Made by a program: the position numbers and the translations under genes
Part shown: piece after piece, positions 1 through 46,007 of the stretch
Layout: every line of letters begins with the position of its first letter
How positions within the stretch are numbered: the first letter of the stretch is position 1
Notes under the pieces: generated by a model
Told to the model about the DNA's origin: nothing
The model's database searches: none
What the model saw: the letters and a program-made list of their open reading frames with translations, nothing else
Virus record (IMG/VR): IMGVR_UViG_3300032246_000177
Span: 1 to 58,486 of that record
DNA length: 58,486 nt
DNA from: a virus
Lineage: Duplodnaviria > Caudoviricetes
Direction: 5' to 3' (one strand)

Positions 1-555
1 GAAGCTACTGCTGGTGGATTAACCACTAAGCAGTTAATGGCTGCTAACATGGGCATGAATGCTTTAAAAAGTGGTTTTGGTGGTGCATCGGGTCAAGGCG
101 GAACTACTGGCGGTCAATCTACTCCAACTATGCAAATGCCAAATCAACCATATATTGCACCAACCATGCTTGCTACTCCAAACTACGGCAAGCTTTATGA
201 TGCGCAGATCTACAATTACAATACTAGACGTGCAGCTCAGGGCGGTATGATGTATGGAAATGGTGGCGGAATTTCTACACTTGGTTCATACTCTGATGGT
301 GGCCGTCTATTGAAAGGCCCCGGCGATGGTATGTCTGATGACATTCCAGCCCATATAGGAGAAAAACAGCCAGCAGCTTTGGCTGATGGGGAATTTGTGG
401 TCCCAGCAGATGTAGTAAGTCACTTAGGTAATGGCTCTACAGACGCTGGCGCTAAACAGTTGTACAAAATGATGGATCGGATTCGTGAAGCCCGCACTGG
501 ACAAAAGAGGCAGGGCAGACAGATCAATCCAAATAAATTTTTACCAAAAGGTTAA
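1..555 (+). CDS. Internal virion protein, 5'-truncated
   Basis: Frame is open from base 1. C-terminal GPGDGMSDDIPA...LADGEFVVPAD module typical of phage internal/tape-measure-associated proteins. First gene of the ejection-protein cluster. Confidence 0.7.
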   Translation, partial: EATAGGLTTKQLMAANMGMNALKSGFGGASGQGGTTGGQSTPTMQMPNQPYIAPTMLATPNYGKLYDAQIYNYNTRRAAQGGMMYGNGGGISTLGSYSDGGRLLKGPGDGMSDDIPAHIGEKQPAALADGEFVVPADVVSHLGNGSTDAGAKQLYKMMDRIREARTGQKRQGRQINPNKFLPKG

Positions 556-558
556 ACC

Positions 559-2061
559 ATGGCAATTACAACACAAGGTATTGATACCTCCAGTCCAGCA
601 GGGATGACGACACAAACGTCTACACCCTCAATCCAACCTTGGGCGCAACCGTACATTAGCAATTACTTAAATGCTACTCAGAATTTAATTCAAAACCAAC
701 AAACCCCTGAGCTATTAAACCAGTCTTACATAGATGCTAAAAACCTAACTCTTCCTGGTGGATTTGCATCTGGTTCAGCATTAGCACAGGCTGGTGGACA
801 AGGTTCTTTAAGTACCGCTCCTATTGCTTTGCAGTATGGTCAGCAAGGCGCTGGTTATGGCGCTCAAGGCGTTAAGTATGGCGAGACTGGCGCTGCAATG
901 GGTACTGCAGCAAGTCGTGCTGGTGACCTGTATGCACAGCAAGCTACTAATCCAGCAGCTGTTCAAGCCTACATGAACCCTTACATTCAGCAATCTTTAG
1001 ACCCACAACTAAAATTACTGAATCAGCAACAACAAATAGCCGCACAAGGAATCAATGCTCAAGCAGCAGGTCAAGGTGCATTTGGCGGTAATCGTGCCAC
1101 TTTAGCCCAAGGCTTAAATGCTCAGAATTATGATTTTGCTCGACAACAAGCCATTGGTCAAGGCTATAACACTGCATTCCAACAAGCACAACAAGCTCAA
1201 CAATTTGGCGCTGGCTTAGGTTTACAAGGCTTACAAACTGGTATACAAGGTCAGCAATTAGGTTTGGCTGGTCTTGGAACTGCAATGCAAGGTTCACAAG
1301 TTGGTTTACAAGGCGTTCAAGGCGCTCAGCAAGGTTACGCTGGCGCTACTACTGCTGGCGGTACATTAGGTAACATTGCAGCTCAACAAGCTCAAGCTCA
1401 ATTAGCACAAGCTCAATTGAAGAACCAGTTTGGTTTGCAACAACAAATGTTCCCATACCAGCAACAGCAGTATGCTCAGTCAATGATGTCTAACTTGCCG
1501 TTCCAAAGCGCATCACAAACAAGCAATCAATACACATCTCCTCCTAATGCGCTTGGTACTGGTATCAATCTTGGTACTAGCTTGTTAGGTGCGGGTTTAA
1601 TATATAAAGCATTAGGTACTCCTGGAGCTTCTGGAGGATTGGCAAAAGATATTAAAGAAAGAAAATCTTATGCTGCAGGTGGAATGGCAGAAGGCTTAGC
1701 CCCTGCATATGGGTCTGATGCTAATCCAATTCCTATGGGTCAAATGGGTGGTGCTGGTATTGCCGATCTTCTTCAAGCAAGAGAAGCTGGACTAGCTCCT
1801 GCATTTAGTGGATCCAATGAAGACTATGTAAACTCTTTGTATCAAAACATGCTTGGTAGACAAGCGGATCAAGGTGGCTATCAGCATAACTTAGATCTAT
1901 TAAATTCTGGCAAGGTTAGCGCTCAAGATTTAGCTGGCGCATTCCGTAATTCAGCAGAAGGTCAAAGCATGCCAAATAGGTATCAATTAATGGGCGCTGG
2001 TATGCCAGCTCGCAGCGGTCTTGCTGATATTCGTTTAAATCAATTATTGGGCGCAGCATGA
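559..2061 (+). CDS. Q/G/A-rich DNA ejection (pilot-like) protein with C-terminal DUF4214-like domain
   Basis: GAFGGNRA motif and Gln-rich helices. YVNSLYQNMLGRQADQGGY...FRNSAE resembles DUF4214. Confidence 0.65.
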   Translation: MAITTQGIDTSSPAGMTTQTSTPSIQPWAQPYISNYLNATQNLIQNQQTPELLNQSYIDAKNLTLPGGFASGSALAQAGGQGSLSTAPIALQYGQQGAGYGAQGVKYGETGAAMGTAASRAGDLYAQQATNPAAVQAYMNPYIQQSLDPQLKLLNQQQQIAAQGINAQAAGQGAFGGNRATLAQGLNAQNYDFARQQAIGQGYNTAFQQAQQAQQFGAGLGLQGLQTGIQGQQLGLAGLGTAMQGSQVGLQGVQGAQQGYAGATTAGGTLGNIAAQQAQAQLAQAQLKNQFGLQQQMFPYQQQQYAQSMMSNLPFQSASQTSNQYTSPPNALGTGINLGTSLLGAGLIYKALGTPGASGGLAKDIKERKSYAAGGMAEGLAPAYGSDANPIPMGQMGGAGIADLLQAREAGLAPAFSGSNEDYVNSLYQNMLGRQADQGGYQHNLDLLNSGKVSAQDLAGAFRNSAEGQSMPNRYQLMGAGMPARSGLADIRLNQLLGAA

Positions 2062-4331
2062 ACATTTCACAGCTATCCGAACAGTTAAAAGACGTTCCAC
2101 AAGGTACCCTTGTTGGCTATGCAAAGAATCCTAATAGCGTAGTTCCTCAGTTCTTAGCATTAGCTGAGATTCAACGCCGTCAGCATTTACAGGCACAAGC
2201 TCCAGCTCCTACAGGAACTGTTGCTGATGATGTGTTGGCACAGGCTAACCCAGTGCCACAGCAAATGATGCCTCAACAGATGGCTCCTCAACAAGTAGAT
2301 CCTCGTGTATTGCAGGCTCAGGCTATGCAACAACAAGCTCAACAACTACCAGAGAATCAACCTGGCGTAGCCCAGCTACCTACGGGTATGCCACAAGGCA
2401 TGGCTTCTGGCGGTATTGTTGCGTTTGCTGGTGGTGGATCATCTATGTTAGAAGACGATGACGATGAAGACAAAGAGTTAGAAAGATTGTTTCCTGGACC
2501 TAGCGTTACAACCGAAGACATTATGGCATTAGCTCAAAGGGCTAAGTCTGGAGTTCGTTCCGTTGTTGACAGATTGCCACAATCTTATGATCAAGCATTA
2601 GCTGCAAAGCAAGCTTCATCTGCACCATCTTCTGTTGGTATTAAAGATTTAATTGCAAACGCTGCGTCTAAACATAACTTACCCCCTGAATTTCTAAACC
2701 GCATTGCTGGTATTGAAAGCGGTGGAGACCCTAATGCTATAAACAAAACTGGAAGTACTGCAAAAGGCTTGTTTGGATTCTTAGATAGCACATGGAAAGG
2801 TTACGGAGTTAATCCAGAAGACCGTTCTAAACCAGAAGTACAAGCTGAATATGGCGCTAAATTAGCTCGTGATAACGCAGAGTTTTTGAAAAAGAAACTA
2901 GGTCGTGACCCTTCTTACCATGAAGTATATGCAGCCAATTACTTTGGCCCAACTGGTGCAGCATCCCTGTTAAGACAAGATCCAAATACGTCAATGAAGA
3001 CAGCTTTATCAAGCTTTGAATCTCCAAAGCGTGTTGATCTAATCATGCAACAGAACCCTAATCTTCGTGGTAAAACCGTTGGGGAAGTTATTAATGGACT
3101 GCGTGGCAAGATGGGCGAAGGCATTGTTGGCTTAGCACATGGTGGAGCCGTTCAGCACTTTGCGACTGGCGATGAGGTTCGTGCAGCAATAGCTGAAAGA
3201 CAAAAGGCTTTTGATGTAGTTCAACAAAATCTTCCTGATAGCCCTTCGTCTGACTATGCTGGTTCTGTAACTAGCTGGATGGAAAGCCCTGAAGGTATTA
3301 AGCAGTTGCGTGATAGACAGATTGCTATGGAAGCTATTAGAAACAATATGCCTATTCCAAAGCTAGATAGCCCATATCAAGCCTATACTCCTAAAACTGC
3401 GGCTCAAGTGCGTCAAGAACGTACAGACGCTAAGGTGGCGGCTGAAAACAAAGAATCAAACAAGCCAACTCCAAAAGTAAACCCAGAGTTGACTCCATAC
3501 AAACTATCATCAGCAGAACAAGACATTGCAAATGCTATGGATAGCGAAGATGCAAACTTTAACAAACCATTGGTTGGTCCAATTGTTACCCAGCCATCAA
3601 GCAATGCACCGACTCCTGGTGGTGTTGCTCCTCCTGGTGCAGTAGCTCCTAAATCTAAGTCAGATTTAATAGAGGAAATGTTATCTAAAAATCTTGAATC
3701 ACAAATTGCAGAAGCTGCTCAAAACAAGAAGATGCAATTAGGTCTTTCATTGTTAGGCGCTGGTGCAGCTGGATTACAAAGTGGATCTAGATATTTAGGT
3801 CAAAACTTAGGTTCTTCATTAGCTGGTGGTGTTAATACATACGGCGCCCTTAAGAAACAAGAGCAAGATCAAAATAAAGATATTCTTGGTACACAGTTAG
3901 GTCTGTACAAGTATGCAGCTTCTAAAGAGCAGGCAATCAAAAATGCTGAAGCTTTAGAGAAGTATCGTGAAGCATCTTTGGGATTGAAGCCTACAGAAGA
4001 AGAGCGGGCTAGAGATAAGTTTAACCTTGCGCTATCTCGTAACCCACAGATGCTTGAATTAAATCGTTTAATTACAGAAGAGCAGAAGGCTGGAATGTTA
4101 ACTCCAGAAAGATATGCTCAATATCAAGCAAATATTGGATTAATAACACAAGCTTTGGCTAAACAGTACAATGTAACACCAGATGTTTTTGTCCCAATGA
4201 AGCCGGTAACAGATCCAACTAAGGTTAAAAAAGAGTGGAGCTGGAATTCTTTAAATCCTTTTTCTAGTTCTGCACCAGACAAAGGCGCTACTGGGGTAGA
4301 TCCAAACAACCCGTTGTTATCAGCAAAATAA
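2058..4331 (+). CDS. Internal virion protein with lytic transglycosylase (SLT/lysozyme-like) domain
   Basis: IAGIESGGDPNA...AKGLFGFLDSTW...YAANYFGP, with the catalytic ES motif. ATGA overlap with the upstream gene. Confidence 0.75.
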   Translation: MNISQLSEQLKDVPQGTLVGYAKNPNSVVPQFLALAEIQRRQHLQAQAPAPTGTVADDVLAQANPVPQQMMPQQMAPQQVDPRVLQAQAMQQQAQQLPENQPGVAQLPTGMPQGMASGGIVAFAGGGSSMLEDDDDEDKELERLFPGPSVTTEDIMALAQRAKSGVRSVVDRLPQSYDQALAAKQASSAPSSVGIKDLIANAASKHNLPPEFLNRIAGIESGGDPNAINKTGSTAKGLFGFLDSTWKGYGVNPEDRSKPEVQAEYGAKLARDNAEFLKKKLGRDPSYHEVYAANYFGPTGAASLLRQDPNTSMKTALSSFESPKRVDLIMQQNPNLRGKTVGEVINGLRGKMGEGIVGLAHGGAVQHFATGDEVRAAIAERQKAFDVVQQNLPDSPSSDYAGSVTSWMESPEGIKQLRDRQIAMEAIRNNMPIPKLDSPYQAYTPKTAAQVRQERTDAKVAAENKESNKPTPKVNPELTPYKLSSAEQDIANAMDSEDANFNKPLVGPIVTQPSSNAPTPGGVAPPGAVAPKSKSDLIEEMLSKNLESQIAEAAQNKKMQLGLSLLGAGAAGLQSGSRYLGQNLGSSLAGGVNTYGALKKQEQDQNKDILGTQLGLYKYAASKEQAIKNAEALEKYREASLGLKPTEEERARDKFNLALSRNPQMLELNRLITEEQKAGMLTPERYAQYQANIGLITQALAKQYNVTPDVFVPMKPVTDPTKVKKEWSWNSLNPFSSSAPDKGATGVDPNNPLLSAK

Positions 4332-4340: not shown

Positions 4341-7300
4341 ATGCCTAGTTTGTTAGAGATCTTAGATGATCCAAACTATGTCAATGCTAATGAAGAAACA
4401 AAGCAGGCTATCTTTAATAAGTACTCTGCTACTGATGATAACTTTGTCAAAGCTAATCCTGCTACACAAGAAGCTATTCGTGTAAAGTTTGGGGTTGCAG
4501 TCCCTTCAGGCGAAGAGGGTGATTCATTAGCCGCATTTGGGCATGGTGTATTGCGTGGGGCATTGCCAGCCGCTGCTGGTATCGTATCTGGTGCCGCTGG
4601 TGCTACTGCTGGTATGGCTGCTGGTCCAGTTGGCGCAGTAGTCGGCGGTCTAGGAGCTGGCTTTGCAGGCTCTGCCGCAACCGCAGCAGCTCAAGAAAAG
4701 TTTCTAGAGGAAAACCCTAAGTTTGCTAAAGCCCTTGGTTTAGATGTGGCTACTGCCGCTAGAGAAGCTAGGGTAAACCCTTATGCATCTATGTCTGGTG
4801 AGATTGCTCCTAACTTATTAGCATTCCGCCCAAGCGGTGCTATGTTTAGAAGTGCCAAAGGACTTGAAGAAGCCGCCGCTAAAAAGGTTATAGCTGAGCG
4901 AGCAGCCGCTATTACAAACTCCGTCATCAATACGGGCGTTGGCGCTGGTATGCAAGTCGGTCAGGAAGCTTTAGGCGAAGAGCCTATTGACTGGAATAAG
5001 GTTGGTATTGCCGCATTAGGTGGTGCGTTAGGACAGAAAGAAACATCGCTTGGTAGAGGTCTTACAACCCTAGGCGAATTGCCAGCCTCTGCAGCTACCA
5101 AGGCGGCTATAAACGCTTTGCGTAGACCTACCCCTGAACCAGCCCCAGAACTCGTCTCTAAAGCCCCAGAAACAACTGCTGGAGGTGTACCCAAGTCTCA
5201 GTCTGTAGATACTGAGGCTATGATGAATCTCATTCCTGAAGCCGAAAGACCAGCAATTATTCCTTCTGAAATAGCAAAGCCAGAAACTCAAATTACACCT
5301 ATTCCAAAAGCTGAAGTTCCAAAGGCTGAATTATCTTTAAAAGATGTTGCTGACCAAGCAAAAGTAATGACTCCAGAAGAGTTTAAAGAGTTTGCTAGCA
5401 AAGGAAAAATTAATACCGCTAAAACATCAGAAAAAAGTTTAGATGATTTTTTAACTGGAAAATCTAAATTTGCAGATTTAGGTGAATTAAATTGGGAAGA
5501 TCCAGCTACTTACGATTTAACAGACCCTTTGGAAAAAGCTGGGTTTAAGATTTTTCAAGACGAAAGATCTGGAGCAACTTATGTTGCCGAGTCGGAAAAA
5601 GATTTAAAAGGAATTTTAAAGGCAGAAAGTGCAATGGAGTACGGTCATGCATATGGCTATGCCCCAGAAGATATTGCCCACTTTTATATGAAAAGACGTG
5701 GTGGCAATTTAGATGCAGCATATCAAGAGTACATTAAAGAAGCCAAGTTAATTGCAGATGAACAGGCAGCTAAAATGGCAGAGTCTGTTGTTCCTGAATC
5801 ACAAGAAGTGGTTAAACCTGCCACAAAAGAAACTTTATCGGAAGAGCAGATTACTCCTGTTTCTGATAAGTTTGCTGCAGAGCATGCAGAGCTTGGTAAA
5901 ACATTGCGAGAATCTCTTGATCAGATGGGGCTTAACCATGTAGGTTTAAGTCTTGAAGACTCTTTACAAGGCTATGTAAACGGCAAGATTCAACCAGTAA
6001 CTGGTAAGTATCTACAGAATATGATTTCCCTTTCTCTGAAAGGTGAAGATATTCATAGCTCTATGAACCATGAAGCTTTACATGCTATGAAAGACAATGG
6101 ATTCTTTACTGATGCAGAATGGGGAATTCTGTCTAGCAAAGCTTTTGATTGGCTTAAAAAGTACAACATTGAAAAATCCTATGGGAATCTTTCAAAAGAA
6201 CTGAAACTTGAAGAAGCTATTGCTAAAGCCTTTGCTGACTATAAAACACAGACTCCACAAGTTAAATCAATTATCTCCAAAGCTATAGCTACGCTTCAGC
6301 GTGTTGGTAATGTATTCCGTGGTCGTGGCTTTAAGAACCATGAAGACATTTTCAAGTCAGCCGCAGAGAATAAGCTGGCTGGTAAGCGTGTTAAACCAGA
6401 AGGTGAAGCTCGTTTTGAGGTAACAGAGAAACCAGTTACTGCTCGTAATGTCCTCAATCAAGAGGTTAGCGCAAGCTTTGTAGCTCCTGAAGTTACTAGA
6501 AAGACTGAGTTCATTCGTAACTTTCAAGATCGACACATTGATCTAAAACGCACTATGGAATCTATCAGAAAGAATATTAAAGATCTTTCTGAAAAGTGGG
6601 ATCCATATCAAAAGCTTGGTTTGTTTAATAGTAAAGTGGCTGAACGCTTTAGATCATTTGCTGATAAAGAAGTTGATCCATTAGTTAAAAAGATGGATAA
6701 GCTTAAGATTACAAACGATGAGCTACATACTTACCTTTTGAATAGACGTGCGGAAAGTTACAACAACCGTATGAATAAACTTAATCCAGACATTGTAGAT
6801 GAGAACGGTAACGTCATCCCTTATAAGCTTAAGGATCGTGCGTCTTCCATACATACTGATGATGCCCGCAAGTATTTTGACGACTTAGATCCTAAGAAGA
6901 AGTCTGCTTTAGAAAACCTAGCTAAAGATGTAGATAACATTATTGATGGTACCCATAAGGTTCTTGTAGAGTCGGGAAAAGAAACTCAAGAAACCATTAA
7001 TGTTTGGAAGAAAACGGATGAAGACTATGCTCCGTTCTTCCGTGAGATGGAAGACAACAGACTATCTACTATTTCTAGAAAAGGTATTGGTACCAAAGGC
7101 TCTGCTTCTAAACGAGCTATGGGTTCTGAAAGAAAAGTTGCGGACATTTTAAACAGCATCATTGGTCAGCGTGAGCAAGCGCTTGAAAATGCTGAGCGTA
7201 TGGTAGTTGGTCGCTCATTGTTTGGTCTGACATTAAAGGCTCCTAATCCAGGTATATGGCTACCTGTTAGCCCATCTGCCATTAAGAACCCAGCGCTTTT

Positions 7301-9158
7301 AGCAAGAGAACTAGATGAGATGGGTCTTGACGGCAAGGATATTGTTGGATTAATGCAAGAGAAGAAGTCTCGTAGGATTGTTAAAGATCCAATTACTGGC
7401 GCTGAAAAGGTTGAGCATCAGGTAAATCCTTTAGAGCGTTACAAAGACAATGTACTGCCTGTTCGCATGAACGGTGAAGATAGTTACATTTTCTTTAACA
7501 AAAACGATCCTTTAGCTGCAAACATGATCCGTTCGTTTAACAACATGGATACACCAACCGTAGGATTGGTTGGCAAAGAGATCGGTAAAGTTACCCAATG
7601 GATGGCTAAGGTCAACACCCAGTGGAACCCCGTATTCGGTGCATTGAACTTTATGCGTGACTTTGGTTCAGCTATGGCTAACTTATCTAACACAGAGTTA
7701 GCTGGTCAACAGGCTAAGATTGCTGGTGGTGTGCGCAAGGCAATGAGTACCATTTGGCATACTATGCGTACTGGCGATTACCCTGATACCGAGTTTGGAA
7801 AGCTATATAAAGAGTTTAGGGAGAGTGGTGGACAGACTTTGTATCGTGAACAACTAGTAAGACGTGCTGACCAAGAAAGCATGATTAACGAAAAGATTAA
7901 TAAATTGCATAGCAATGCTGCCAAAAAGATGGCAAGTGGTTTCTTTAAAGGATTGTCTGACTTCAATGACTCAATTGAAAATGCAATTCGTTTGTCTGCA
8001 TTTAAAGCAGCTAAAGAAAAAGGATTATCTGCAGAAAAATCCGCTGCAATTGCTAAAGATTTAACAGTAAACTTTGACCGTAAAGGTGCATTAGGCTCTC
8101 AGATTAATAACTACTTTGCATTCTTTAACGCATCTGCACAAGGTACTGCTCGTATGATGCAAACTCTTGCAGGCCCAGCCGGTAAGAAGATTGCATTGGG
8201 TGGATTAGGTATTGGCGCCCTTCAAGCTGGAATGATGGAGCTTGCTGGATTTGGCGACAACGATCCACCTGAGTTTGTTAAGTCTAGGAACTTTATTATT
8301 CCAACCCCAGATGGTAAATATATTTCTATTCCATATCCATTAGGCTTGCACTTCTTACCTAACATTGGACGGATTGCTGTAGAGACTGGTTTACATGGAG
8401 ACTTTGCTAAGCATGCTTCTAATATGGCTGCTATAGTTGCTGACTCATTTAACCCATTGGGTGGTGGAGAAGTGTCGTTACAGACTATTTCTCCTACCGC
8501 ATTAGATCCAATCGTTGCATTGGCAACAAACAAAGACCCATTTGGTCGTCCTATTTCCAAGCAAGATCGTGCTACTTCACCTACTCCTGGATTTGAGCGT
8601 TCTCGTGAGCAATCTAGTGCAGTCAACAAAACTATTGCTGAGGCATTGAACTATATTACTGGTGGTACAGAAGATACCAAGGGCTTTTTAAGCCCAACAG
8701 CAGATCAATTAGATTACTTAGTAGGCCAAGTTACTGGTGGTGTTGGTCGTGAGATTATGAAGATTAGCAAGACGGCTGGTGCAGTTGCTAAGGGTGAAAC
8801 AGAAGATCTAGCATCTTATGATATTCCATTGGCTGGAAGATTCTATGGAGATACAAAATCTAATGCGGCCAATTCACAACATTTTTACGACAATGTAACT
8901 AAGATGGCTGAGCATGAGGCAGTAATTAAAGGTATGCGAGAGCGCAAAGAAAATGTTGCTGAATACCTTAGTGAAAATCCTGATGCTCGTTTATGGCAAC
9001 AAGTTAATAATGCAGAGAACCAAATCTCTGATATTAATAAACGTCAAAAACAAATGCGTAAATTAAATGCGGATGAAGACAAGATTAAAGCCTTAAATGA
9101 TCGTAAACAACAGATTATGACAAGAATCAACGAACGGATTAATTCATTGAAAGAATAG
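4341..9158 (+). CDS. Large polyvalent ejection protein (zincin HExxH domain; C-terminal LPD38-like domain)
   Basis: 1605 aa. MNHEALH...EEAIA zincin signature. C-terminal FFNASAQG...IPYPLG...NKDPFGRPI...LDYLV region is like LPD38. Confidence 0.7.
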   Translation: MPSLLEILDDPNYVNANEETKQAIFNKYSATDDNFVKANPATQEAIRVKFGVAVPSGEEGDSLAAFGHGVLRGALPAAAGIVSGAAGATAGMAAGPVGAVVGGLGAGFAGSAATAAAQEKFLEENPKFAKALGLDVATAAREARVNPYASMSGEIAPNLLAFRPSGAMFRSAKGLEEAAAKKVIAERAAAITNSVINTGVGAGMQVGQEALGEEPIDWNKVGIAALGGALGQKETSLGRGLTTLGELPASAATKAAINALRRPTPEPAPELVSKAPETTAGGVPKSQSVDTEAMMNLIPEAERPAIIPSEIAKPETQITPIPKAEVPKAELSLKDVADQAKVMTPEEFKEFASKGKINTAKTSEKSLDDFLTGKSKFADLGELNWEDPATYDLTDPLEKAGFKIFQDERSGATYVAESEKDLKGILKAESAMEYGHAYGYAPEDIAHFYMKRRGGNLDAAYQEYIKEAKLIADEQAAKMAESVVPESQEVVKPATKETLSEEQITPVSDKFAAEHAELGKTLRESLDQMGLNHVGLSLEDSLQGYVNGKIQPVTGKYLQNMISLSLKGEDIHSSMNHEALHAMKDNGFFTDAEWGILSSKAFDWLKKYNIEKSYGNLSKELKLEEAIAKAFADYKTQTPQVKSIISKAIATLQRVGNVFRGRGFKNHEDIFKSAAENKLAGKRVKPEGEARFEVTEKPVTARNVLNQEVSASFVAPEVTRKTEFIRNFQDRHIDLKRTMESIRKNIKDLSEKWDPYQKLGLFNSKVAERFRSFADKEVDPLVKKMDKLKITNDELHTYLLNRRAESYNNRMNKLNPDIVDENGNVIPYKLKDRASSIHTDDARKYFDDLDPKKKSALENLAKDVDNIIDGTHKVLVESGKETQETINVWKKTDEDYAPFFREMEDNRLSTISRKGIGTKGSASKRAMGSERKVADILNSIIGQREQALENAERMVVGRSLFGLTLKAPNPGIWLPVSPSAIKNPALLARELDEMGLDGKDIVGLMQEKKSRRIVKDPITGAEKVEHQVNPLERYKDNVLPVRMNGEDSYIFFNKNDPLAANMIRSFNNMDTPTVGLVGKEIGKVTQWMAKVNTQWNPVFGALNFMRDFGSAMANLSNTELAGQQAKIAGGVRKAMSTIWHTMRTGDYPDTEFGKLYKEFRESGGQTLYREQLVRRADQESMINEKINKLHSNAAKKMASGFFKGLSDFNDSIENAIRLSAFKAAKEKGLSAEKSAAIAKDLTVNFDRKGALGSQINNYFAFFNASAQGTARMMQTLAGPAGKKIALGGLGIGALQAGMMELAGFGDNDPPEFVKSRNFIIPTPDGKYISIPYPLGLHFLPNIGRIAVETGLHGDFAKHASNMAAIVADSFNPLGGGEVSLQTISPTALDPIVALATNKDPFGRPISKQDRATSPTPGFERSREQSSAVNKTIAEALNYITGGTEDTKGFLSPTADQLDYLVGQVTGGVGREIMKISKTAGAVAKGETEDLASYDIPLAGRFYGDTKSNAANSQHFYDNVTKMAEHEAVIKGMRERKENVAEYLSENPDARLWQQVNNAENQISDINKRQKQMRKLNADEDKIKALNDRKQQIMTRINERINSLKE

Positions 9159-9237: not shown

Positions 9238-10203
9238 ATGTCAAGTGGCTACTATTTAACCGATGATCAGTTTATTGAAGAATGGATGAAGCTGGGTAGT
9301 CCACAAAAGTTTGCAGAGAAACACAAAGTAAATGTTCGTTCAGTATATAACCGACGACGAACGATTGAGGTTAAGCGCAACATTGAATTACCCACTCATA
9401 ATGATGCTAGAGAATCTAGCCTTAAAAAATTACAACAAACTCCAGGTCACTCCCGCCGTGGTATAGAGATGGAAAAGGGTCGAGTAGTAGTCTTTTCAGA
9501 CGCTCACTTCTGGCCTGATGATGTAAGCACCTCATACAAAGCTCTTTTGATGATCATCAAAGAGTTTCGCCCACAGGTCGTAGTGGCAAATGGAGATATG
9601 TTTGACGGGTCACAGGCTAGCCGCCATGCTCGTATTGGCTGGGAGAAAACCCCAACAGTTAAAGAAGAGTTAGAGGCCTGTCAGGAAATGATGGCTGGCA
9701 TTGAGAAAGCCGCTATAGGAGCAGAGCTTATCTGGACATTAGGAAACCATGACGCCCGCTTTGAGACTTTCTTATCAGCTCAGATGGGTACATATGAGGG
9801 AGTAGCAGGGTTTACCCTTAAAGATCATTTTCCACTATGGAAACCATGCTGGTCATACTGGATCAATGAAGATACTGTTATTAAACACCGCTGGAAGGGT
9901 GGTTTTGGAGCTGGTCGTGCCAATACCCTTAATTCGGGCTGTAACATCATTACAGGCCACACACACAATTTGGCTGTCCAACCCTTCACTGACTACAACG
10001 GAACCCGCTATGGCGTTCAAACGGGCTGCCTAGCGAACATCCATGGAGAACAGTTCATGGCATATACAGAAGATAATCCCAAGGACTGGAGAGAAGGGTT
10101 TGCCCTGTTATCATTTGAGGAGGGCAGACTTATGCTGCCTGAGCTAATCCAAGTATGTGGTGAGGATCGTTTTGAATTTAGAGGGTGCATCAATAAGGTA
10201 TGA
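9238..10203 (+). CDS. Calcineurin-like metallophosphoesterase with N-terminal HTH-like segment
   Basis: SDAH, NGDMFD, GNHD and GHTH motifs. Confidence 0.85.
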   Translation: MSSGYYLTDDQFIEEWMKLGSPQKFAEKHKVNVRSVYNRRRTIEVKRNIELPTHNDARESSLKKLQQTPGHSRRGIEMEKGRVVVFSDAHFWPDDVSTSYKALLMIIKEFRPQVVVANGDMFDGSQASRHARIGWEKTPTVKEELEACQEMMAGIEKAAIGAELIWTLGNHDARFETFLSAQMGTYEGVAGFTLKDHFPLWKPCWSYWINEDTVIKHRWKGGFGAGRANTLNSGCNIITGHTHNLAVQPFTDYNGTRYGVQTGCLANIHGEQFMAYTEDNPKDWREGFALLSFEEGRLMLPELIQVCGEDRFEFRGCINKV

Positions 10204-10547
10204 AGCTAACGCCAGCAATCCTACGGAATTTGTACAGTGCAATCTACTGTATGAAGCCGTTTGCTCGCTGGTCTATGCCTTTGCCTGAAGAGATTCATTT
10301 TGTAGTTGACCAAGATCCAGAAGTCATGGGTACTTATTACTACGATGATGGCGGTGATCACGAACATACAATCACTATTTCAGATAAAAAATGTGGTCAT
10401 TTATCGACTGTTATTCGGGTCCTATGCCACGAAGCCGTCCATATGAGCCGATGGAAAACTAATCGCTGGACACATCACGATAAAGAGTTTAGGCGGCGTA
10501 CTAAAGTTATATCCGATGAATTGGGCTTCGATCCGCTAGAATTGTAA
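10200..10547 (+). CDS. SprT-like zinc metalloprotease-fold protein
   Basis: LCHEAVH followed by HDKEF. Coupled by ATGA overlap. Confidence 0.65.
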   Translation: MKLTPAILRNLYSAIYCMKPFARWSMPLPEEIHFVVDQDPEVMGTYYYDDGGDHEHTITISDKKCGHLSTVIRVLCHEAVHMSRWKTNRWTHHDKEFRRRTKVISDELGFDPLEL

Positions 10548-13895: not shown

Positions 13896-14606
13896 TTATT
13901 TAAAAGACTTCTTGGTGGTGTTAAAACTTGTAATTAAATCCGCATGAAACTCAGGATCTAGATCTTTTGCTCTCTCAAAAAGAGAGCGGTTTACCTTAAA
14001 GATGTTGTCCACATCGTCAGGTTTGGTTGCTAAAGCTAGCAATGCTGCTGTGCCAGCCTTCAACCCAGCCATCCACTCTTCTGCCGTTCCCTTATCGTTA
14101 ACTGGCTTCAGAGTCCATTCACCTGGCAAGGCGATTGCTTCAGATAGCTTAATGCTTGCAACTGCTGGTTGTGTTTTGGCAGTAGCTACAGGCGCAACTA
14201 CTGCATCAGGCTTTTTTGCTGATGCCTCATTCGGGTTTGTTACCGGTTCAATGGCATCATTTTCCACAATCTCAAAGGCATTAACCCAAAGATAGCGTCG
14301 TAAATATGTCTGAACGGCGCCCAAATTTTGAACATCATGGCAACCTTTTAAGGCAGCAGATGACATTGGTGATGTAAACATTACTGAAGTGCCGTCTTCC
14401 GTGTCATTAATTTGTAGGAAAGCCATTTCGTGATTAAACGATACAACACCGCACAAACTCATCTCAGAACAGATCTTTTGAATAGCCGGCAAGAAATCAC
14501 CCAACTCAAAGTAATGATATCCAGCAAACTTATTATGACCAGATTTCTTCAGTGGTGTGTTTTGTAACCGTATACGGGCATCTTGTAGCTTTTTATAAAC
14601 GCTCAT
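13896..14606 (-). CDS. ERF-family single-strand annealing protein
   Basis: KSGHNKFAGYHYFEL...QNLGAVQTYLRRY. Confidence 0.8.
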   Translation of the reverse strand: MSVYKKLQDARIRLQNTPLKKSGHNKFAGYHYFELGDFLPAIQKICSEMSLCGVVSFNHEMAFLQINDTEDGTSVMFTSPMSSAALKGCHDVQNLGAVQTYLRRYLWVNAFEIVENDAIEPVTNPNEASAKKPDAVVAPVATAKTQPAVASIKLSEAIALPGEWTLKPVNDKGTAEEWMAGLKAGTAALLALATKPDDVDNIFKVNRSLFERAKDLDPEFHADLITSFNTTKKSFK

Positions 14607-16720: not shown

Positions 16721-17155
16721 CTAAGAAAGCTGGGCAAATTGAAAGCGTTTTTTAGGAACACTATAAAAATATTCGCCTTCTTTAATGTTGCAATTAGGAT
16801 TTTCAATCAAATCACAGTTGGTAATTTGGTTGGTATTTATCCACAAAGCTTTAGTAAAGTTTTTGTTGACTACAAAGTAGATGGTTGGCAAATCGTTATC
16901 AAACAGTTTTGCCTTGCGCTCTGGTATATGAACGGTCTCAAATGGAAACTCCCACCTGAATGAAGGCCTGACTTCAACCTCCACATAAATCTTGTTCTTA
17001 CCATTTCTACTACAAATTAAATCTACTTCATACTTCTTATAATCTTGAGCATACAAATCCCACTCCCGAAGAAGAAACTTTTTAACGGCTTCTCTTCCAG
17101 GTATGTCGTACTTATCGCTAAGTGACTGGTCGTAGGTTTTGTAGGCTCCAAGCAT
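16721..17155 (-). CDS. PD-(D/E)XK restriction-fold nuclease-like protein
   Basis: VDLI...YVEVEVR...ERKAK. Confidence 0.55.
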   Translation of the reverse strand: MLGAYKTYDQSLSDKYDIPGREAVKKFLLREWDLYAQDYKKYEVDLICSRNGKNKIYVEVEVRPSFRWEFPFETVHIPERKAKLFDNDLPTIYFVVNKNFTKALWINTNQITNCDLIENPNCNIKEGEYFYSVPKKRFQFAQLS

Positions 17156-17952
17156 TATGCAGATCTAGGTAACGCCCCACTAAATCCATATGTACCGGTA
17201 TGGGTAAAATGCGCCCAAGGAGCGCACCAAACCCTAAAGCCAGCCTCACGAGCAATCTTGCAGAAGTGGTAATCTTCAGACAATAAACGATTGCTTTCTT
17301 CATCAATACTGGTAGCAAAGAACTCTTTAATTAATTTAACTTCTCTTACTGTATCTACCGCATGATACATATCATTTGTATAGCTAGGCACTTTAGTTTC
17401 TAATCGTTCAAAAACCTCACGTTTAATCAACATAAAACCTGTACCACCGTTGGCAATCTCAATAGGCTCGTTAATGTTGCCCGTAGCACTTTGTACGCCT
17501 GATGGTAAGTTCAATACAAATGCTCCTGTGTGCTGGCTTAGTTCTTGTGGGGGTACTCCAGCTTTAACGGCTTCGGTTACTTGTACCCAGTTGATTTCCT
17601 TCTTAGGATATAAACCACAAATAATATCTTTGTCTGCCGCAAGCATCCTAGGAATATCGTTAGGATTAAAACCAATATCAGCATCAATAAACATCAGATG
17701 GGTAGCATCGGATTTCATAAAGTCATATGCCATGCTATTTCTAGCACGGGTAATTAAAGACTCGTTCATCATAAATGAGTAGTACATTTGAATACCAGCT
17801 TGACCAAACGTACCTACGCACTGCATAACTGCTGAAGCATATAGGCCAGTACACATACCACCATACATTGGTGTAGCTACAAATAATTTAGCAGCTACTT
17901 TTGGTTTTTGTTGTACGAATGGTGCAATCTTTTTGTCGTTTTTAAAACTCAT
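17155..17952 (-). CDS. GT-A fold glycosyltransferase
   Basis: VATPMYGG, SLITRARN, FIDAD (DxD), GTGFMLI and SEDYHFC motifs. Confidence 0.8.
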   Translation of the reverse strand: MSFKNDKKIAPFVQQKPKVAAKLFVATPMYGGMCTGLYASAVMQCVGTFGQAGIQMYYSFMMNESLITRARNSMAYDFMKSDATHLMFIDADIGFNPNDIPRMLAADKDIICGLYPKKEINWVQVTEAVKAGVPPQELSQHTGAFVLNLPSGVQSATGNINEPIEIANGGTGFMLIKREVFERLETKVPSYTNDMYHAVDTVREVKLIKEFFATSIDEESNRLLSEDYHFCKIAREAGFRVWCAPWAHFTHTGTYGFSGALPRSA

Positions 17953-18101
17953 TTTGTTTCCTTTTTTTGGTCAATGTATTGTTTAAGTATACTTAATATG
18001 CCAGCCTCAACTAATACGGCCAGCCCTTCCTTATCGAAGTTGACTACTGCATCAGCAGATCCATCTTCATATTCTTTAATAACCTCTAATTGGATATCCA
18101 T
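17949..18101 (-). CDS. Hypothetical protein (50 aa, not in ORF track)
   Basis: MDIQLEVIKEYEDGSADA...; overlaps both neighbours. Confidence 0.55.
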   Translation of the reverse strand: MDIQLEVIKEYEDGSADAVVNFDKEGLAVLVEAGILSILKQYIDQKKETK

Positions 18102-18781: not shown

Positions 18782-18978
18782 GTCTTAATTACCTTTCCTT
18801 GAGACTCCTGATATACGCAACCGCCTTGCATCTGCGGGCGCTTAAACTCCCTGATATGGCGGCATTCTTGTTCTGCTTTTACTGGAATAGTTTTATCCAT
18901 GCAGTTGTATTCAGCTACATAGACTTGGGACTGGTCGCAACCAGCTAACAATAAAATGGGCAATAAGTACTTAATCAT
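18772..18978 (-). CDS. Putative lipoprotein
   Basis: Lipobox LLAGC. Confidence 0.65.
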   Translation of the reverse strand: MIKYLLPILLLAGCDQSQVYVAEYNCMDKTIPVKAEQECRHIREFKRPQMQGGCVYQESQGKVIKTCG

Positions 18979-39515: not shown

Positions 39516-39703
39516 TGGATCCTTTAGATGTAGTACTCAAAGAAGCTAGAGACCGAATTGAGATGCTCAGTGAGGCATTAAAAAGAGGTAGCTGCACGAG
39601 TTTTGAGGAATATAAGTACACATGCGGTCAGATTCGAGGTCTAGAGTCCGCATGCGCAATAACCCTAGACCTTCAGAAAAATATGGAGAACTCCGATGAG
39701 TGA
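39515..39703 (+). CDS. Hypothetical protein
   Basis: EEYKYTCGQIRGL; sits between portal and GroES. Confidence 0.7.
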   Translation: MDPLDVVLKEARDRIEMLSEALKRGSCTSFEEYKYTCGQIRGLESACAITLDLQKNMENSDE

Positions 39704-40100
39704 CCAATTAGCATTAGATAGAGCAGTAGATTTATCAGCATTACTGGATAAAGCTCCAGAAGAAAAAGCACAGCAACTCCCTATTCCTTCAGGATATCGC
39801 ATCCTTTGCGCTATTCCAGAAGTGGAAAATGAGTATGACAGCGGTCTATTAAAAGCAGACCAAACCATTAACTATGAAGAAAAGCTGGCAACAGTACTAT
39901 TCGTGGTCGAAATGGGGCCGGATTGCTACAAAGATGAGAAACGATTCCCCAACGGAGCATGGTGTCAAAAGGGTGATTTCGTAATTGTCAGACCAAACGC
40001 TGGAACACGCCTGTTAATTCATGGTCGTGAGTTCAGAATGATCAATGATGACGTTGTGGAAGCCGTAGTTCAGGATCCACGTGGCATCACACGTGCTTAA
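39696..40100 (+). CDS. groES: GroES-like co-chaperonin
   Basis: PSGYRIL, GPDCY, KGDFV and FRMINDDVVEAVV. Confidence 0.85.
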   Translation: MSDQLALDRAVDLSALLDKAPEEKAQQLPIPSGYRILCAIPEVENEYDSGLLKADQTINYEEKLATVLFVVEMGPDCYKDEKRFPNGAWCQKGDFVIVRPNAGTRLLIHGREFRMINDDVVEAVVQDPRGITRA

Positions 40101-43190: not shown

Positions 43191-43198
43191 TCAAGAAA

Positions 43199-43274
43199 CC
43201 GGGAAAACCGGCTTGTTAAACTGTCCCGGCAGATGCATACACTATTAACAGGCCTGATCTTTGTATGAAGGACA
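43199..43274 (+). ncRNA. Candidate pseudoknotted 5' leader RNA
   Basis: Crossing stems CCGGGA/TCCCGG, GGCTTGTTAA/TTAACAGGCC and CATACA/TGTATG. Confidence 0.5.
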
Positions 43275-43281
43275 ATTTATT

Positions 43282-43791: not shown

Positions 43792-43839
43792 TTAATCTAG
43801 GGGGATTCGTCCCCCGCTTAAATCTTAAGGAGATTAATT

Positions 43840-44361
43840 ATGATGCAAACTGACGTTAAATCGGCTCACCAATCGGTTGCTGGATTTTTAGTTCCAGCTA
43901 TTAGAACTCGTGTCAAACAAATTACATATTCTGGTAATGGATCACAAGCTGGCGCACTCATGCTTTTTGATACAACAGTAGCTCCAACTACAGCTAGTTA
44001 TTCTAAAACTGCTAACGTTGTAACAGTTAGCTCTACAGCCCACGGACTTTCTAATGGCGCTATAGTAGGTATTGGGTATTTAAGTGCTACAGGAAATTCA
44101 GCAACAGACGGTAATTATGCAATTTCTAATGCTTTAGCGAATACTTTTAACATTACAGACATTAATTTAGTATCTAACGTAAGTGGCGGTACAGGTTGTT
44201 ATTTTGTAGCGAATGGTAATACTTGGATTACTTCATTTGATACTTTAACTAGCCAAACTTCAACACAACAAGTTAGCATTCCTGGTGAAGGTGTTTTAGT
44301 GCAAAATGGTTTGTATGCCCAAATGAACTCTATTGGTTTTGTAACTGTATTTTATGGCTAA
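43840..44361 (+). CDS. Virion structural protein
   Basis: MQTDVKS...IPGEGVL...TVFYG. Confidence 0.7.
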   Translation: MMQTDVKSAHQSVAGFLVPAIRTRVKQITYSGNGSQAGALMLFDTTVAPTTASYSKTANVVTVSSTAHGLSNGAIVGIGYLSATGNSATDGNYAISNALANTFNITDINLVSNVSGGTGCYFVANGNTWITSFDTLTSQTSTQQVSIPGEGVLVQNGLYAQMNSIGFVTVFYG

Positions 44362-44614
44362 GAAAAAAGGCCCTTCTCTAGCAGTTGGTAGAGGCGAGAA
44401 ACTTCCCGTTTCTCAAGGGGCTGGTCTTACCGCTAAAGGTAGAGCGAAATACAATGCAGCTACAGGTAGCAATTTAAAAGCCCCACAACCTGAAGGCGGA
44501 GCAAGGAAGAAGTCGTTCTGCGCACGTATGTCTGGTATGCCGGGTCCTATGAAAGACGAAAAGGGTCGCCCTACTCGTAAAGCGGCTTCTTTAGCCAGAT
44601 GGAAATGCAAATGA
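44354..44614 (+). CDS. Small basic protein (RKKSFCARM type)
   Basis: Lys/Arg-rich; GLTAKGRAKYN...SLARWKC. Confidence 0.7.
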   Translation: MAKKKGPSLAVGRGEKLPVSQGAGLTAKGRAKYNAATGSNLKAPQPEGGARKKSFCARMSGMPGPMKDEKGRPTRKAASLARWKCK

Positions 44615-44859: not shown

Positions 44860-44860
44860 T

Positions 44861-45466
44861 ATGCCAAGCAAATCTAAGAAGCAGCATAACTTTATGGCCG
44901 CTATTGCTCACTCACCAGAGTTTGCAAAGAAAGCTGGCGTACCTATGTCAGTTGGTAAAGATTTTATAACTGCCGATAAAGGCAAGAAATTTAAAGAAGG
45001 TGGAACCATGGCGCACAGTGAAAAAAGCGAAATGAAAGAAGATATTACGCAAGACAAAAAGCTTATTAAGAAAGCTTTTGGAATGCATGATAAGCAGTTA
45101 CACGAAAGTAAGAAGACTAACTTAACTAAATTAAAAGGTGGTGGTATGGCTAAGGAAACAATGGGTCCACGCACAATGGCGATGGATGTAGAAAAAGGCT
45201 CAAACAAATTATTAGCTCATGGTGAATCCGCTGTTCAAAAGCGTGGCCACACTAAGGGCATGGAAGAGCGTGACTACAAAGTTGAAAAGATTCAAGGTGG
45301 CGCTAAAGGCGGCAAAGGCACATTTGGTGCAGCTCCTATTAAAATGGCTAAAGGTGGTATGTGTGGTGGTGGTAAAACCATGAAAAAAATGTCTACTGGT
45401 GGATCTGCATCTAGCCGTGCTGATGGTATTGCTGCCAAAGGCAAAACTCGTGGAAAGATTTGCTAA
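44861..45466 (+). CDS. Basic low-complexity protein with xxGG motifs
   Basis: MPSKSKKQHNFMAA; FKEGG, MAKGG, MSTGG. Confidence 0.7.
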   Translation: MPSKSKKQHNFMAAIAHSPEFAKKAGVPMSVGKDFITADKGKKFKEGGTMAHSEKSEMKEDITQDKKLIKKAFGMHDKQLHESKKTNLTKLKGGGMAKETMGPRTMAMDVEKGSNKLLAHGESAVQKRGHTKGMEERDYKVEKIQGGAKGGKGTFGAAPIKMAKGGMCGGGKTMKKMSTGGSASSRADGIAAKGKTRGKIC

Positions 45467-45468
45467 TC

Positions 45469-45753
45469 ATGCCATACGAAGAGACTGGCAAAGAGAAGCT
45501 TAAACGTGAAGCCTATTACAAGGCTAACAAAGAACGTGGTATTCGTGCTGAAAAACAGCAAGAGTACGAACGCTTTGGCACAACCGAGCAGAACATTCCA
45601 CAGGTAAATCCTATGGGTGATGTTGTTACCCCTGCCGCCGCTGGTATGAAAAAAGGTGGTAAGGTTCGTGGTCACGGTTGCGAAACACGTGGAAAAACCA
45701 AAGGCACCATGATTACTATGTGTGGTGGCGGTTACGCTAAAGGCAAAAAATGA
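45469..45753 (+). CDS. Small basic protein
   Basis: MKKGGKVRGHG. Confidence 0.65.
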   Translation: MPYEETGKEKLKREAYYKANKERGIRAEKQQEYERFGTTEQNIPQVNPMGDVVTPAAAGMKKGGKVRGHGCETRGKTKGTMITMCGGGYAKGKK

Positions 45754-46007
45754 GACCATCTCGTGGAATGGGTGCAGTTATGCCTTCTAAGATGGGAAAG
45801 CCCGTAAAGAAAGCTCGTAGAGATAATACGGACTTTACTCAGTATGCTGAAGGTGGAGAAGTTTGGGATAAAAAGCGCCCTAAAGACTTAGGCGCTCCTA
45901 AGAAATTAGCTCCAGCAAAGAAAGCTAAAGCAAAAGCAATGGCTAAAGCTGCTGGTCGTCCGTATCCAAACCTCGTGGATAACATGAGAGCAGCAAGGAA
46001 AAAATAA
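45750..46007 (+). CDS. Small basic protein
   Basis: MRPSRGMG, YAEGG, GRPYPNLVDNM. Confidence 0.7.
   Translation: MRPSRGMGAVMPSKMGKPVKKARRDNTDFTQYAEGGEVWDKKRPKDLGAPKKLAPAKKAKAKAMAKAAGRPYPNLVDNMRAARKK

Follow-up and report, generated by a model that had tools for sequence, protein, structure and literature searches.

Within the tailed-phage particle, the proteins that lie inside it or are ejected from it are the least well understood: they evolve fast, mostly have no family name and cannot be seen in most reconstructions. The stretch of freshwater tailed-phage DNA analysed here (58,486 nucleotides, hereafter the window) raises the question of what a short Gly-Gly peptide contributes to proteins of this type. 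An earlier note had described a hydrophobic-x-x-G-G motif at domain borders of capsid-internal proteins, and suggested that it was either a protease site or a docking tag for cargo in the procapsid. The present analysis bears out this observation and strengthens it. The motif is best read as a property of the joint between modules, rather than of the modules themselves, and not as a general packaging label. On balance, we lean slightly towards this seam being a functional joint, and neither an address label nor an artefact. The explanation considered best as a whole, that of a selected joint recognised in trans and serving as the separation site of fusion proteins, is given somewhat less than an even chance. 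Text searches of the literature yielded no description of a Phi-x-x-G-G seam.

All 16 peptides named in the earlier note were found in the ORF translations of the window, in the ORFs to which they had been assigned, and 13 of them match the pattern [MFYL]xxGG; the first residue of AAQGG and GASGG is not a bulky hydrophobic one, and the second Gly is missing from FATGD. In its fuller form the consensus reads [M/Y/F]-[A/K/S]-x-G-G-x-[V/I], frequently paired with 8–12 residues between copies. Three ejection-type genes, all on the plus strand, carry it at the beginning of the window. gpA (1–555; sequence, alignments A1 and A7) is a Gly-rich protein cut at its 5' end by the record; this ORF is considered truncated because its orthologues in the four complete genomes used as relatives (G001–G004, making five genomes with the window) are 286–799 aa long. 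It contains AAQGG (a weak copy, 232–246), YGNGG (253–267) and YSDGG (289–303), the last of which does lie four residues ahead of GPGDG, at the start (316) of a conserved C-terminal GPGDG...GEFVVPA domain (alignments A1 and A7). The gpA family comprises 13,537 representative clusters (E<=1e-3). YSDGG stands ahead of GPGDG in 143 of 150 family sequences, and LGSYSDGG is invariant within the conserved C-terminal block (alignment A7). At least one motif copy is found upstream of the domain in 137 of 146 diverse family representatives; position -2 is Ala in 77% and position +2 is Ile in 41%.

gpB (559–2061; sequence, Pfam) is a Gln/Gly/Ala-rich protein with a C-terminal DUF4214 (1813–1965). Its copies are GASGG (weak, 1624–1638) and YAAGG (1669–1683), the latter 44 residues ahead of the DUF4214 match (residues 419–469), in agreement with the order described previously. 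Enrichment is weak in gpB orthologues (M/F/Y at position -3 of 69 of 458 GG sites, against a background of 0.098). gpC (2058–4331; Pfam, PHROG) is an internal protein with an SLT transglycosylase (2649–2876). Its two motif pairs, MASGG-IVA-FAGGG (2400–2438) and LAHGG-AVQH-FATGD (3132–3173), occupy residues 115–127 and 359–372 and, as had been noticed, bracket both the SLT match (198–273) and the PHROG transglycosylase match (190–354). In all 16 gpC orthologues the N-terminal module ends with a copy, and in 11 of them a second one follows the central segment. The N-terminal module of gpC gave no matches as a search query and gpC alone retrieved no loci in the locus search; related loci were retrieved with alignment A1.

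A family of small, very basic proteins is encoded between the capsid and adaptor genes; the 322-aa protein encoded between the portal and capsid genes resembles a coiled-coil scaffold. The small basic genes described here are on the plus strand. The multi-module protein at 44861–45466 (sequence, alignment A2) contains the seams FKEGG (44990–45004), LKGGG (45131–45145), MAKGG-MCGGG (45344–45373) and MSTGG (45389–45403), and ends in the C-terminal tail SASSRADGIAAKGKTRGKIC (45404–45463); its family has 831 proteins, none of them named and none with a Pfam match. The next protein (45469–45753) has the seams MKKGG (45646–45660) and, near its C-terminus, MCGGG (45718–45732), and is probably disordered, because its Atlas model has a pLDDT of 0.38; Atlas look-ups assigned no family. 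The third (45750–46007) consists of a leader (45750–45842), a YAEGG seam (45843–45857) and a variable C-terminal module. This 31-residue leader is common to 3416 clusters, and all of its best 120 matches have an xxGG seam, beginning with Y in 119 and with F (FKEGG) in one. At least five different types of downstream module are joined to the leader through YxxGG. A second recurrent element, ADGVTKTGKTKGKNLGDSG, begins a 61-aa protein (47555–47740, plus strand) and is related to the C-terminal tails found behind many seams.

The six ORFs named in the earlier note have M/F/Y at -3 in 12 of 36 GG sites, against 20 of 265 in the rest of the window (Fisher p = 5.9e-5), for a set of ORFs that was picked post hoc. 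More weight is therefore given to three independent sets: composition-preserving shuffles of the five genomes, 160 related loci, and the 146 diverse gpA-family representatives. In the shuffles, ten proteins reach p<=0.005, nine of which are small basic or internal proteins. In the related loci, M/F/Y occupies -3 in 52 of 75 GG sites of the small basic proteins, 260 of 917 in gpA and 31 of 129 in gpC, versus 89 of 626 in control families, with a background of about 0.10. The strict motif occurs 10.35 times per 1000 aa in small basic head-module proteins (79 proteins), 6.38 times in gpA (76 proteins), 2.98 times in gpC (16 proteins) and 1.48 times in gpB (57 proteins), falling to 0.24 in giant gpD-like ORFs (43 ORFs) and 0.01 in eight control families (terminase, portal, capsid and neighbours; one copy in 150,291 aa). 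The excess goes beyond what chance would give. The carriers contain 8–17% Gly, and an artefact of Gly-rich, Lys-rich low-complexity proteins might have been suspected on these grounds. It is hardly credible, given that composition-preserving shuffles do not reproduce the counts, that in the far more Gly-rich fibre proteins (four ORFs of the window) just 9 of 181 GG sites are preceded by M/F/Y at -3, and that the positions are conserved in orthologues.

The motif is conserved in all four complete relatives, across thousands of homologues from metagenomes and in a cultured high-GC cyanophage. In alignment A2, which covers the family of 44861–45466, the columns of the motif vary little or not at all, at a mean column identity of 42%. 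YAKGG, YASGG, YAEGG and YADGG occur at equivalent places in the high-GC cyanophage MinM2, and the codons at seams have only GGT-GG in common. Persistence of the motif in relatives, metagenomic homologues and a high-GC cyanophage implies selection at the level of the protein. This bears on the proposal that the seam is a by-product of module shuffling, in which a short shared coding stretch would act as a crossover point and encode a peptide of little function. Modules are gained, lost and fused exactly at seams, and the phage has an ERF-type annealing protein (13896–14606), as such a proposal would have it. It is nevertheless very improbable: the DNA shared at seams amounts to only about 5 bases (GGTGG), the other codons differing, the peptide is kept in the high-GC relative, and the seam columns are better conserved than their surroundings.

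The position of the motif was examined relative to the segments that proteins share. The right ends of shared BLAST segments fall within 2 aa of the motif end in 27 of 73 cases (null 7.2 +/- 2.5, maximum 17 in 1000 draws), and left ends lie at -9 to +2 aa of the motif in 130 of 359 cases (null 76.4 +/- 7.4). In alignment A2, modules present as indels are bracketed by motif copies. The small proteins that have no motif (33 of 79) are mostly single free-standing modules, plus a few doubtful ORFs. DUF6321, the KNWI and LAKPQ modules and a phiKZ-type DUF3008-like protein (the stand-alone one of phage PA7) have no motif when encoded on their own; in fused forms of the same modules, a motif is present at the junction. 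In the window, DUF6321 (44354–44614, plus strand; Pfam) is free-standing and without the motif; in relatives, it is fused behind ...MKKGG (forms L022_7826_8353 and L029_14646_15170). The KNWI module (46007–46183, plus strand) is likewise free-standing and without the motif, and is fused directly behind an xxGG seam in three relatives (G003, L022 and L064). The claim that the motif lies at domain borders of capsid-internal proteins stands for the borders, with which the ends of shared segments coincide; the capsid-internal location is plausible.

We infer that gpA, gpB, gpC and the small basic proteins are virion cargo from their gene position (the ejection-type proteins are encoded after the lysis and fibre genes), the SLT and LPD38 domains, PHROG matches to 'internal virion protein' and 'virion structural protein', and the synteny of the window with MinM2 and GB2A. 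Confinement of the motif to plausibly capsid-internal or ejected proteins is, on this basis, supported. No proteomic data for this phage group were found, and a literature search on cultured relatives gave only unrelated papers. A nucleotide search of a phage collection gave one short match (in a phosphoesterase gene) and no close relatives, and no host could be assigned from genome bins, contigs of relatives of about 60 kb being present in bins of many phyla.

Restriction to putative cargo, with absence from shell, portal and fibres, is also what would be expected of the docking tag proposed in the earlier note, namely a short address that binds the procapsid interior, scaffold or portal and loads cargo, in the manner of encapsulin targeting peptides or the T4 capsid targeting sequence. 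Tandem copies could provide avidity, terminal copies exist (14 of 105), and many seams are flanked by conserved elements, namely an N-terminal leader and a basic C-terminal tail. However, the motif is missing from free-standing modules of the same gene cluster and from the giant cargo protein, and the leader or the RADG..KGKTKG tail would be a better candidate for a tag than the seam. Its coincidence with module joints favours a role of the motif in the joint rather than as an address; the docking tag appears weakened by these comparisons and is judged improbable.

According to the explanation preferred here, [M/Y/F]-[A/K/S]-x-G-G-x-[V/I] would be a selected seam joining independently exchangeable modules, carried by gpA, gpB, gpC and the small very basic proteins. 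It would be recognised in trans, and fusion proteins would be separated there, making it a processing site for a candidate peptidase of phage or host origin. Exposure and flexibility of the stretch would come from Gly-Gly, and specificity from the hydrophobic residue together with Ala or Lys. A cut at the seam itself is possible, with the balance tilted somewhat against it. Doublets 8–12 residues apart would release tiny peptides, and 14 of the 105 copies (the other 91 being internal) fall within the last 8 residues, some preceding a conserved terminal Cys. The 43 giant gpD-like ORFs, some with HExxH, hardly use the motif. YSDGG is invariant in the gpA block and also occurs inside tape measure proteins, for which no cut is reported at this element. 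Against any reading in trans, Phi-x-x-G-G-Phi fits a helix cap or a tight beta-turn, and is maybe a passive idiom spread by module shuffling.

The same observations can be accommodated by a structural joint that is never cut, in which Phi-x-x-G-G-x-V would act as a hairpin staple or tight turn, or would cap a helix that leads into a hinge. Cargo made of several modules could then be stored like a string of beads and pass through the portal and tail channel one module at a time, with doubled copies forming a short beta-meander that may pair with partner strands. Successive copies are spaced 8–9 residues apart in 54 cases and 11–12 in 64, as against about one per bin in shuffles; hydrophobic residues recur at -3 and +2/+3; LGSYSDGG is invariant in gpA and the same element is present in tape measure proteins; and no protease shared by the five genomes was found. 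All these features would suit an uncut joint, but a hinge does not need the conserved Phi-Ala/Lys, the giant gpD-like ORFs, which probably have many domains, manage without the motif, and the restriction to this set of proteins is left unexplained. An uncut joint is regarded as rather unlikely, though a serious alternative.

The search for a peptidase that might act at the seam bears on both readings. The window and its four complete relatives were found to share no peptidase family (Pfam, PHROGs and NCBIfam for the window; Pfam for 113 ORFs of G001–G004), which counts against a cut; nor did these scans reveal a packaged cysteine protease. No C39 peptidase or ABC transporter family (double-glycine leader type) was found in any scan, and the supposed similarity of GDGMSD...GEFV to self-cleaving peptidases of the LexA type found no support in Pfam or PDB profile searches. 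It had been stated that the window contains no recognisable prohead protease. This holds for the head module, but two zincin-type candidates had been overlooked, neither of them conserved in relatives. The first is gpD (4341–9158, plus strand), a giant polyvalent cargo protein that makes no use of the motif and is considered here as context and contrast. It has an LPD38 domain (8262–8804; Pfam, E = 9.9e-38) and a HEALH sequence (6069–6083); the zincin-like H-E-x-x-H, with a Glu about 44 residues downstream, is invariant in 26 of 26 sequences. The second is a SprT-like ORF (10200–10547; Pfam), with no orthologue in G001–G004. The gpD zincin was dropped as cognate peptidase because it was not found in G001–G004 and the giant proteins lack the seam; DUF2201_N was dropped because it is present in all four relatives and absent from the window.

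More broadly, the seam might be a single word in a widely shared cargo code, read by a conserved partner (an endopeptidase, or the portal/ejection machinery) in unrelated podophage lineages, including an abundant aquatic group and cyanophage relatives. We consider this unlikely. If it were true, the packaged and injected protein set could be read from sequence, and a leader and seam could be attached to foreign proteins to have them loaded and released. In any event, the motif is nearly absent from shell, portal and fibre proteins and frequent in ejection-type and unnamed small basic proteins, so cargo candidates could be found in metagenomes. The seam would also account for the building and rebuilding of cargo proteins from modules (mosaicism), and the cut-site, hinge and docking-strand readings each provide a testable handle on cargo packing and release. 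The families are very large (13,537 gpA-domain clusters and 3416 leader clusters), and any function would concern a major share of aquatic phages.

Several known systems offer points of comparison. GG-I-V-A-F may resemble the loop with which GroES binds GroEL; in the small basic proteins the hydrophobic part is missing, and the idea was dropped. SU10 was also set aside: its adaptor family matches two proteins of the window, and its internal proteins have no seam. Encapsulin targeting peptides, the analogue of the docking reading, are short, usually terminal peptides that load cargo into an HK97-fold shell and are bound in an ordered way; the seam is joint-specific.

The earlier note had invoked adenain, whose maturation sites are of the type (M/I/L)-X-G-G|X. 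The adenovirus protease (AVP), which has counterparts with Gly-Gly-X sites in large DNA viruses, cuts basic core proteins behind Gly-Gly; double sites may be contiguous, as in cytokeratin 18, and the substrate Met-Arg-Gly-Gly has its hydrophobic residue at P4 (PMC4246237). The likeness lies in Gly-Gly within basic core proteins and in double sites. The analogy is nevertheless out of register, because the hydrophobic residue of the seam would be at P5, with Ala/Lys at P4; adenain systems are moreover defined by a packaged cysteine protease, and none was found in the scans of the window and G001–G004. Polyvalent proteins of phages and conjugative elements, large and with LPD-type domains and often an embedded zincin-like peptidase, are made of several modules and delivered with the DNA, and processing by these peptidases has been proposed (Iyer et al. 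2017, PMC5512222). gpD belongs to this class (LPD38, zincin-like HExxH). LPD matches are absent from the smaller proteins that carry the seam (gpA, gpB, gpC and the small basic ones), and the giant proteins do not use it. No Gly-Gly linker is named in that paper, in whose text the word 'glycine' does not occur.

The cargo protein C1 (gp45) of the Bacteroides phage crAss001 is an ejected podophage cargo (Bayfield et al. 2023, PMC10172136), from a phage of unrelated capsid and portal lineage. It contains FAEGG (260–264) and FAYGG (559–563), which follow ordered segments (214–245 and 425–552), although the motif fits only 3 of its 20 GG sites, which taken alone is a weak match. Both copies are located in stretches that the structure does not resolve, outside the ordered, bound segments, which speaks against an address label; the authors model one uncut chain, consistent with an uncut joint, and no cleavage of gp45 is reported in that text, where the stem 'cleav' is absent. 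In tape measure proteins, Y/F-A-x-G-G...GPGxG...SD...GEF is the same contiguous element as YSDGG-RLLK-GPGDG...GEFVVPA of gpA. The matches, to 8zdo_S (mycobacteriophage Douge) and 8rk3_A (JBD30), are weak (E = 0.004 and 0.12, PDB profile search), and the element is internal to long proteins and unresolved in both structures. Cleavage of the T5 or JBD30 tape measure was dropped as a precedent, T5 pb2 being cut after R1127 and not at Gly-Gly.

The T4 capsid targeting sequence provides a further comparison. According to a review (PMC9026906, citing Mullaney and Black 1996), it is N-terminal only, about 10 residues long, and cut after L/I-X-E by gp21, a known prohead serine protease. Removal of a propeptide of this type is not what is seen here: the consensus of the seam differs, 91 of 105 copies are internal, copies may also be doubled or C-terminal, and no prohead protease was recognised. 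The likeness to T4 is one of layout only: there, a short conserved peptide links a targeting part to internal proteins that are small, basic, diverse and quick to evolve, an arrangement reproduced here by one leader joined through YxxGG to variable modules (3416 clusters and at least five module types).

All 16 of the peptides listed in the earlier note are present at their ORFs, and 13 of them fit the hydrophobic form claimed there ([MFYL]xxGG), whereas three do not. Within the window, which is the entire virus record (58,486 bases), the residue three places ahead of GG is M, F or Y at 12 of 36 sites in the six ORFs concerned (gpA, gpB and gpC at the window start, 44861-45466, 45469-45753 and 45750-46007) versus 20 of 265 in the remaining ORFs (Fisher p = 5.9e-5); as this set was picked after the motif had been seen, independent sets carry more weight. 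Composition-preserving shuffles of each protein in five genomes gave p ≤ 0.005 for ten proteins. Nine are internal proteins or belong to the small basic proteins, a motif-rich family encoded between the capsid and adaptor genes; the tenth is a 171-aa membrane protein adjoining a lysozyme gene. Across 160 related loci, in counts that take in related sequences, the same position is occupied by M, F or Y at 52 of 75 sites in small basic proteins, 260 of 917 in gpA, 31 of 129 in gpC, 69 of 458 in gpB, 89 of 626 in eight control families and 203 of 1896 in unassigned ORFs (background about 0.10). The strict form [MFY][AKS]xGG occurs, per 1000 aa, 10.35 times in small basic proteins, 6.38 in gpA, 2.98 in gpC, 1.48 in gpB, 0.24 in 43 giant gpD-like ORFs and 0.01 in the controls, the control sets being orthologue-rich and amounting to eight families rather than 394 independent proteins. 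In the Gly-rich fibres of the window, only 9 of 181 GG sites have M, F or Y at this position. Enrichment over a Gly-rich background, here and in related phages, is thus borne out by the shuffles, the related loci and the fibre control. The fuller consensus is [M/Y/F]-[A/K/S]-x-G-G-x-[V/I], and copies are often paired, 8-9 residues apart in 54 cases and 11-12 apart in 64 (shuffles give about one per bin); the presence of orthologues raises both counts.

The window opens with gpA (1-555, cut by the record end; 286-799 aa in orthologues), gpB (559-2061, with DUF4214), gpC (2058-4331, with an SLT transglycosylase) and gpD (4341-9158, a polyvalent protein with LPD38), a set typical of podophage ejection proteins; we infer that the proteins carrying the motif are packaged in the virion. 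The head module comprises small and large terminase, an 823-aa portal, a GroES-like protein, a coiled-coil 322-aa protein, a Mu gpT-type capsid protein and two SU10-type adaptor proteins, and is followed by Gly-rich fibres and lysis genes. The record is incomplete: the first ORF has no start (position 1) and the last, spanin-like ORF runs off the end (position 58486) in a different frame, and in the relative G002 their counterparts are separated by about 3 kb that encodes, among others, a GH108 endolysin and a 717-aa protein. Viral contigs hold more than 596 portal relatives and more than 562 gpA-domain relatives, and the same gene order is found in the cultured Synechococcus phage MinM2 and two Planktothrix phage records. 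Three records of 65,014 bases each (OQ594354, OL906435, PP438419), given with three different cyanobacterial hosts, yield the same match and may be one phage; contigs of about 50-64 kb with a near-identical capsid gene (L184-L232) lie in genome bins of many phyla, including archaea, and are most likely contigs of free phages caught up in the binning. The four complete relatives, covered in full (G001-G004), all have a DUF2201_N protein with a VWA domain, a family A DNA polymerase and a DUF927 primase-like protein (e.g. L090:1589-2758, L092:4131-5321), instead of which the window has an ERF protein, a helicase, a C5 methylase and a Toprim protein, so that different replication modules accompany the same head and ejection modules. 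A minus-strand cluster (17155-21420) of a radical SAM/SPASM enzyme, two or three glycosyltransferases (including a GT10 fucosyltransferase) and an FkbM-type methyltransferase, with counterparts in G002, may modify glycan or DNA.

The motif is also conserved in orthologues. In 27 homologues of the 44861 protein, which belongs to a family of 831 members with no Pfam match and no informative name, the GG and hydrophobic columns are invariant or nearly so, against a mean column identity of 42%. All 16 gpC orthologues have a copy closing the N-terminal module, usually as F/Y/M-A-x-G-G-I-V-A-F-x-x-G-G with a run of acidic residues behind it, and 11 of the 16 have a second copy behind the central segment. 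The gpA C-terminal domain is represented by 13,537 clusters; among the best 150 representatives, 143 have YSDGG four residues upstream of GPGDG, and at least one further upstream copy is present in 137 of the 146 that extend 40 or more residues upstream. MinM2, which has a high G+C content, keeps the peptide at equivalent places, and the codons of the motif within the window have only GGT-GG in common, indicating that selection acts on the protein.

The placement at domain borders proposed in the earlier note was upheld by inserts in the 44861-family alignment, where copies bracket inserted modules, by the ends of shared segments and by fusions of the 45750-protein leader (45750-45842). Among 79 unique small basic proteins, 27 of 73 right ends of shared segments fall within two residues of a motif end (null 7.2 ± 2.5), and 130 of 359 left ends fall at or just ahead of a motif (null 76.4 ± 7.4), the left-end signal being increased by BLAST segments that extend into the motif, which is itself shared. 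The leader is found in 3416 clusters; in the related loci examined it precedes at least five unrelated modules, and in all of the best 120 matches it is joined to the next module via YxxGG (FKEGG in one). In the window, KNWI is encoded as a gene of its own (46007-46183); in G003, L022 and L064 it is fused behind the motif. DUF6321, likewise separate here (44354-44614), is fused behind MKKGG in L022 and L029. Free-standing single modules lack the motif; they make up most of the 33 of the 79 small basic proteins that have no copy, with a few doubtful ORFs among the rest. A phiKZ-type phage has a DUF3008-like protein that stands alone and is likewise devoid of it. The motif thus goes with the joint and not with the modules. 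This contrast between fused and free forms, the specificity for one protein set and selection for the hydrophobic and Ala/Lys residues together speak for a function exerted at the joints, and against both a general address label and a passive linker.

The motif could, tentatively, be a cut site between modules, a reading to which we lean because a cut is the simplest function required only at joints. The evidence opposing it is substantial: the doublets are closely spaced, 14 of 105 copies lie within eight residues of the C-terminus (some ahead of a conserved terminal Cys), and the YSDGG copy is invariant and built into a gpA domain that also occurs within tape measure proteins. A turn or hinge left uncut would account for the doublets and for the hydrophobic positions on either side of GG, but leaves the restriction to one protein set unexplained, and we rate it only slightly below the cut.

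A cut would call for a peptidase, and the earlier observation that no prohead protease is recognisable holds for the window with Pfam, PHROGs and NCBIfam. The helical 322-aa protein between the portal and capsid genes matches only designed helical repeats, and a conserved 150-aa protein gave no match. In gpD, HEALH (6069-6083) and a Glu pair about 44 residues downstream are invariant in 26 of 26 homologues and, judged by this pattern, look like a zincin-like peptidase missed by Pfam. Homologues of this giant protein also contain ART-PolyVal and other polyvalent domains, but the zincin-like domain was not found in G001-G004; in the related loci, 20 of 130 large ORFs, many of them incompletely covered, have HExxH in other contexts, and giant gpD-like proteins scarcely use the motif. 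A small SprT-like zincin (HEAVH; 10200-10547), encoded just behind the ejection proteins and a metallophosphoesterase, lacks an orthologue in G001-G004, and the DUF2201_N protein of all four relatives, a putative metallopeptidase, is absent from the window. The relatives were scanned over 57 + 56 ORFs, leaving out, among others, ORFs split across pieces, including the giant protein of G002. With no candidate common to the window and its relatives, no recognisable peptidase travels with the motif, which also counts against a cut.

A second recurrent element, [AS]-[DE]-G-[IVC]-x-x-[KR]-G-[KH]-T-[KR]-G, closes many otherwise unrelated small proteins (45404-45463, 45670-45720, 47555-47740 and 47743-48090 in the window), often behind the first motif and often ahead of a terminal Cys or hydrophobic pair. 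It also opens a 61-aa protein encoded on its own among the connector genes and stands at the end of a 308-aa Pro-rich protein in MinM2, and would suit the role of docking tag better than the first motif. The GroES-like protein (39696-40100; PHROG co-chaperonin, weak NCBIfam matches) adjoins the portal gene and is present in all four relatives; the G-G-I-V-A-F core of the gpC motif may resemble the GroEL-binding loop of GroES. The octamer GCTGGTGG, the Chi site of E. coli, occurs 21 times versus 1.27 expected, always on the plus strand (e.g. 10-17, 2427-2434, 51151-56737). Twenty copies are in-frame Ala-Gly-Gly, and these exact codons serve 20 of the 42 Ala-Gly-Gly tripeptides, where codon usage predicts 8.5; as most copies lie within Gly-rich fibre genes, coding probably accounts for much of the excess.

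Text searches limited to the main text of openly available papers found no published description of the motif. Polyvalent proteins and their peptidases have been described, with no mention of a Gly-Gly linker (Iyer et al., 2017; PMC5512222). In crAss001, gp45 has FAEGG and FAYGG after its two ordered segments, and no cleavage is reported (PMC10172136). The adenovirus protease substrate (PMC4246237) has a register one residue off from that of the present motif. The closest system in layout is the T4 capsid targeting sequence (PMC9026906), which differs from the motif in position, consensus and protease.
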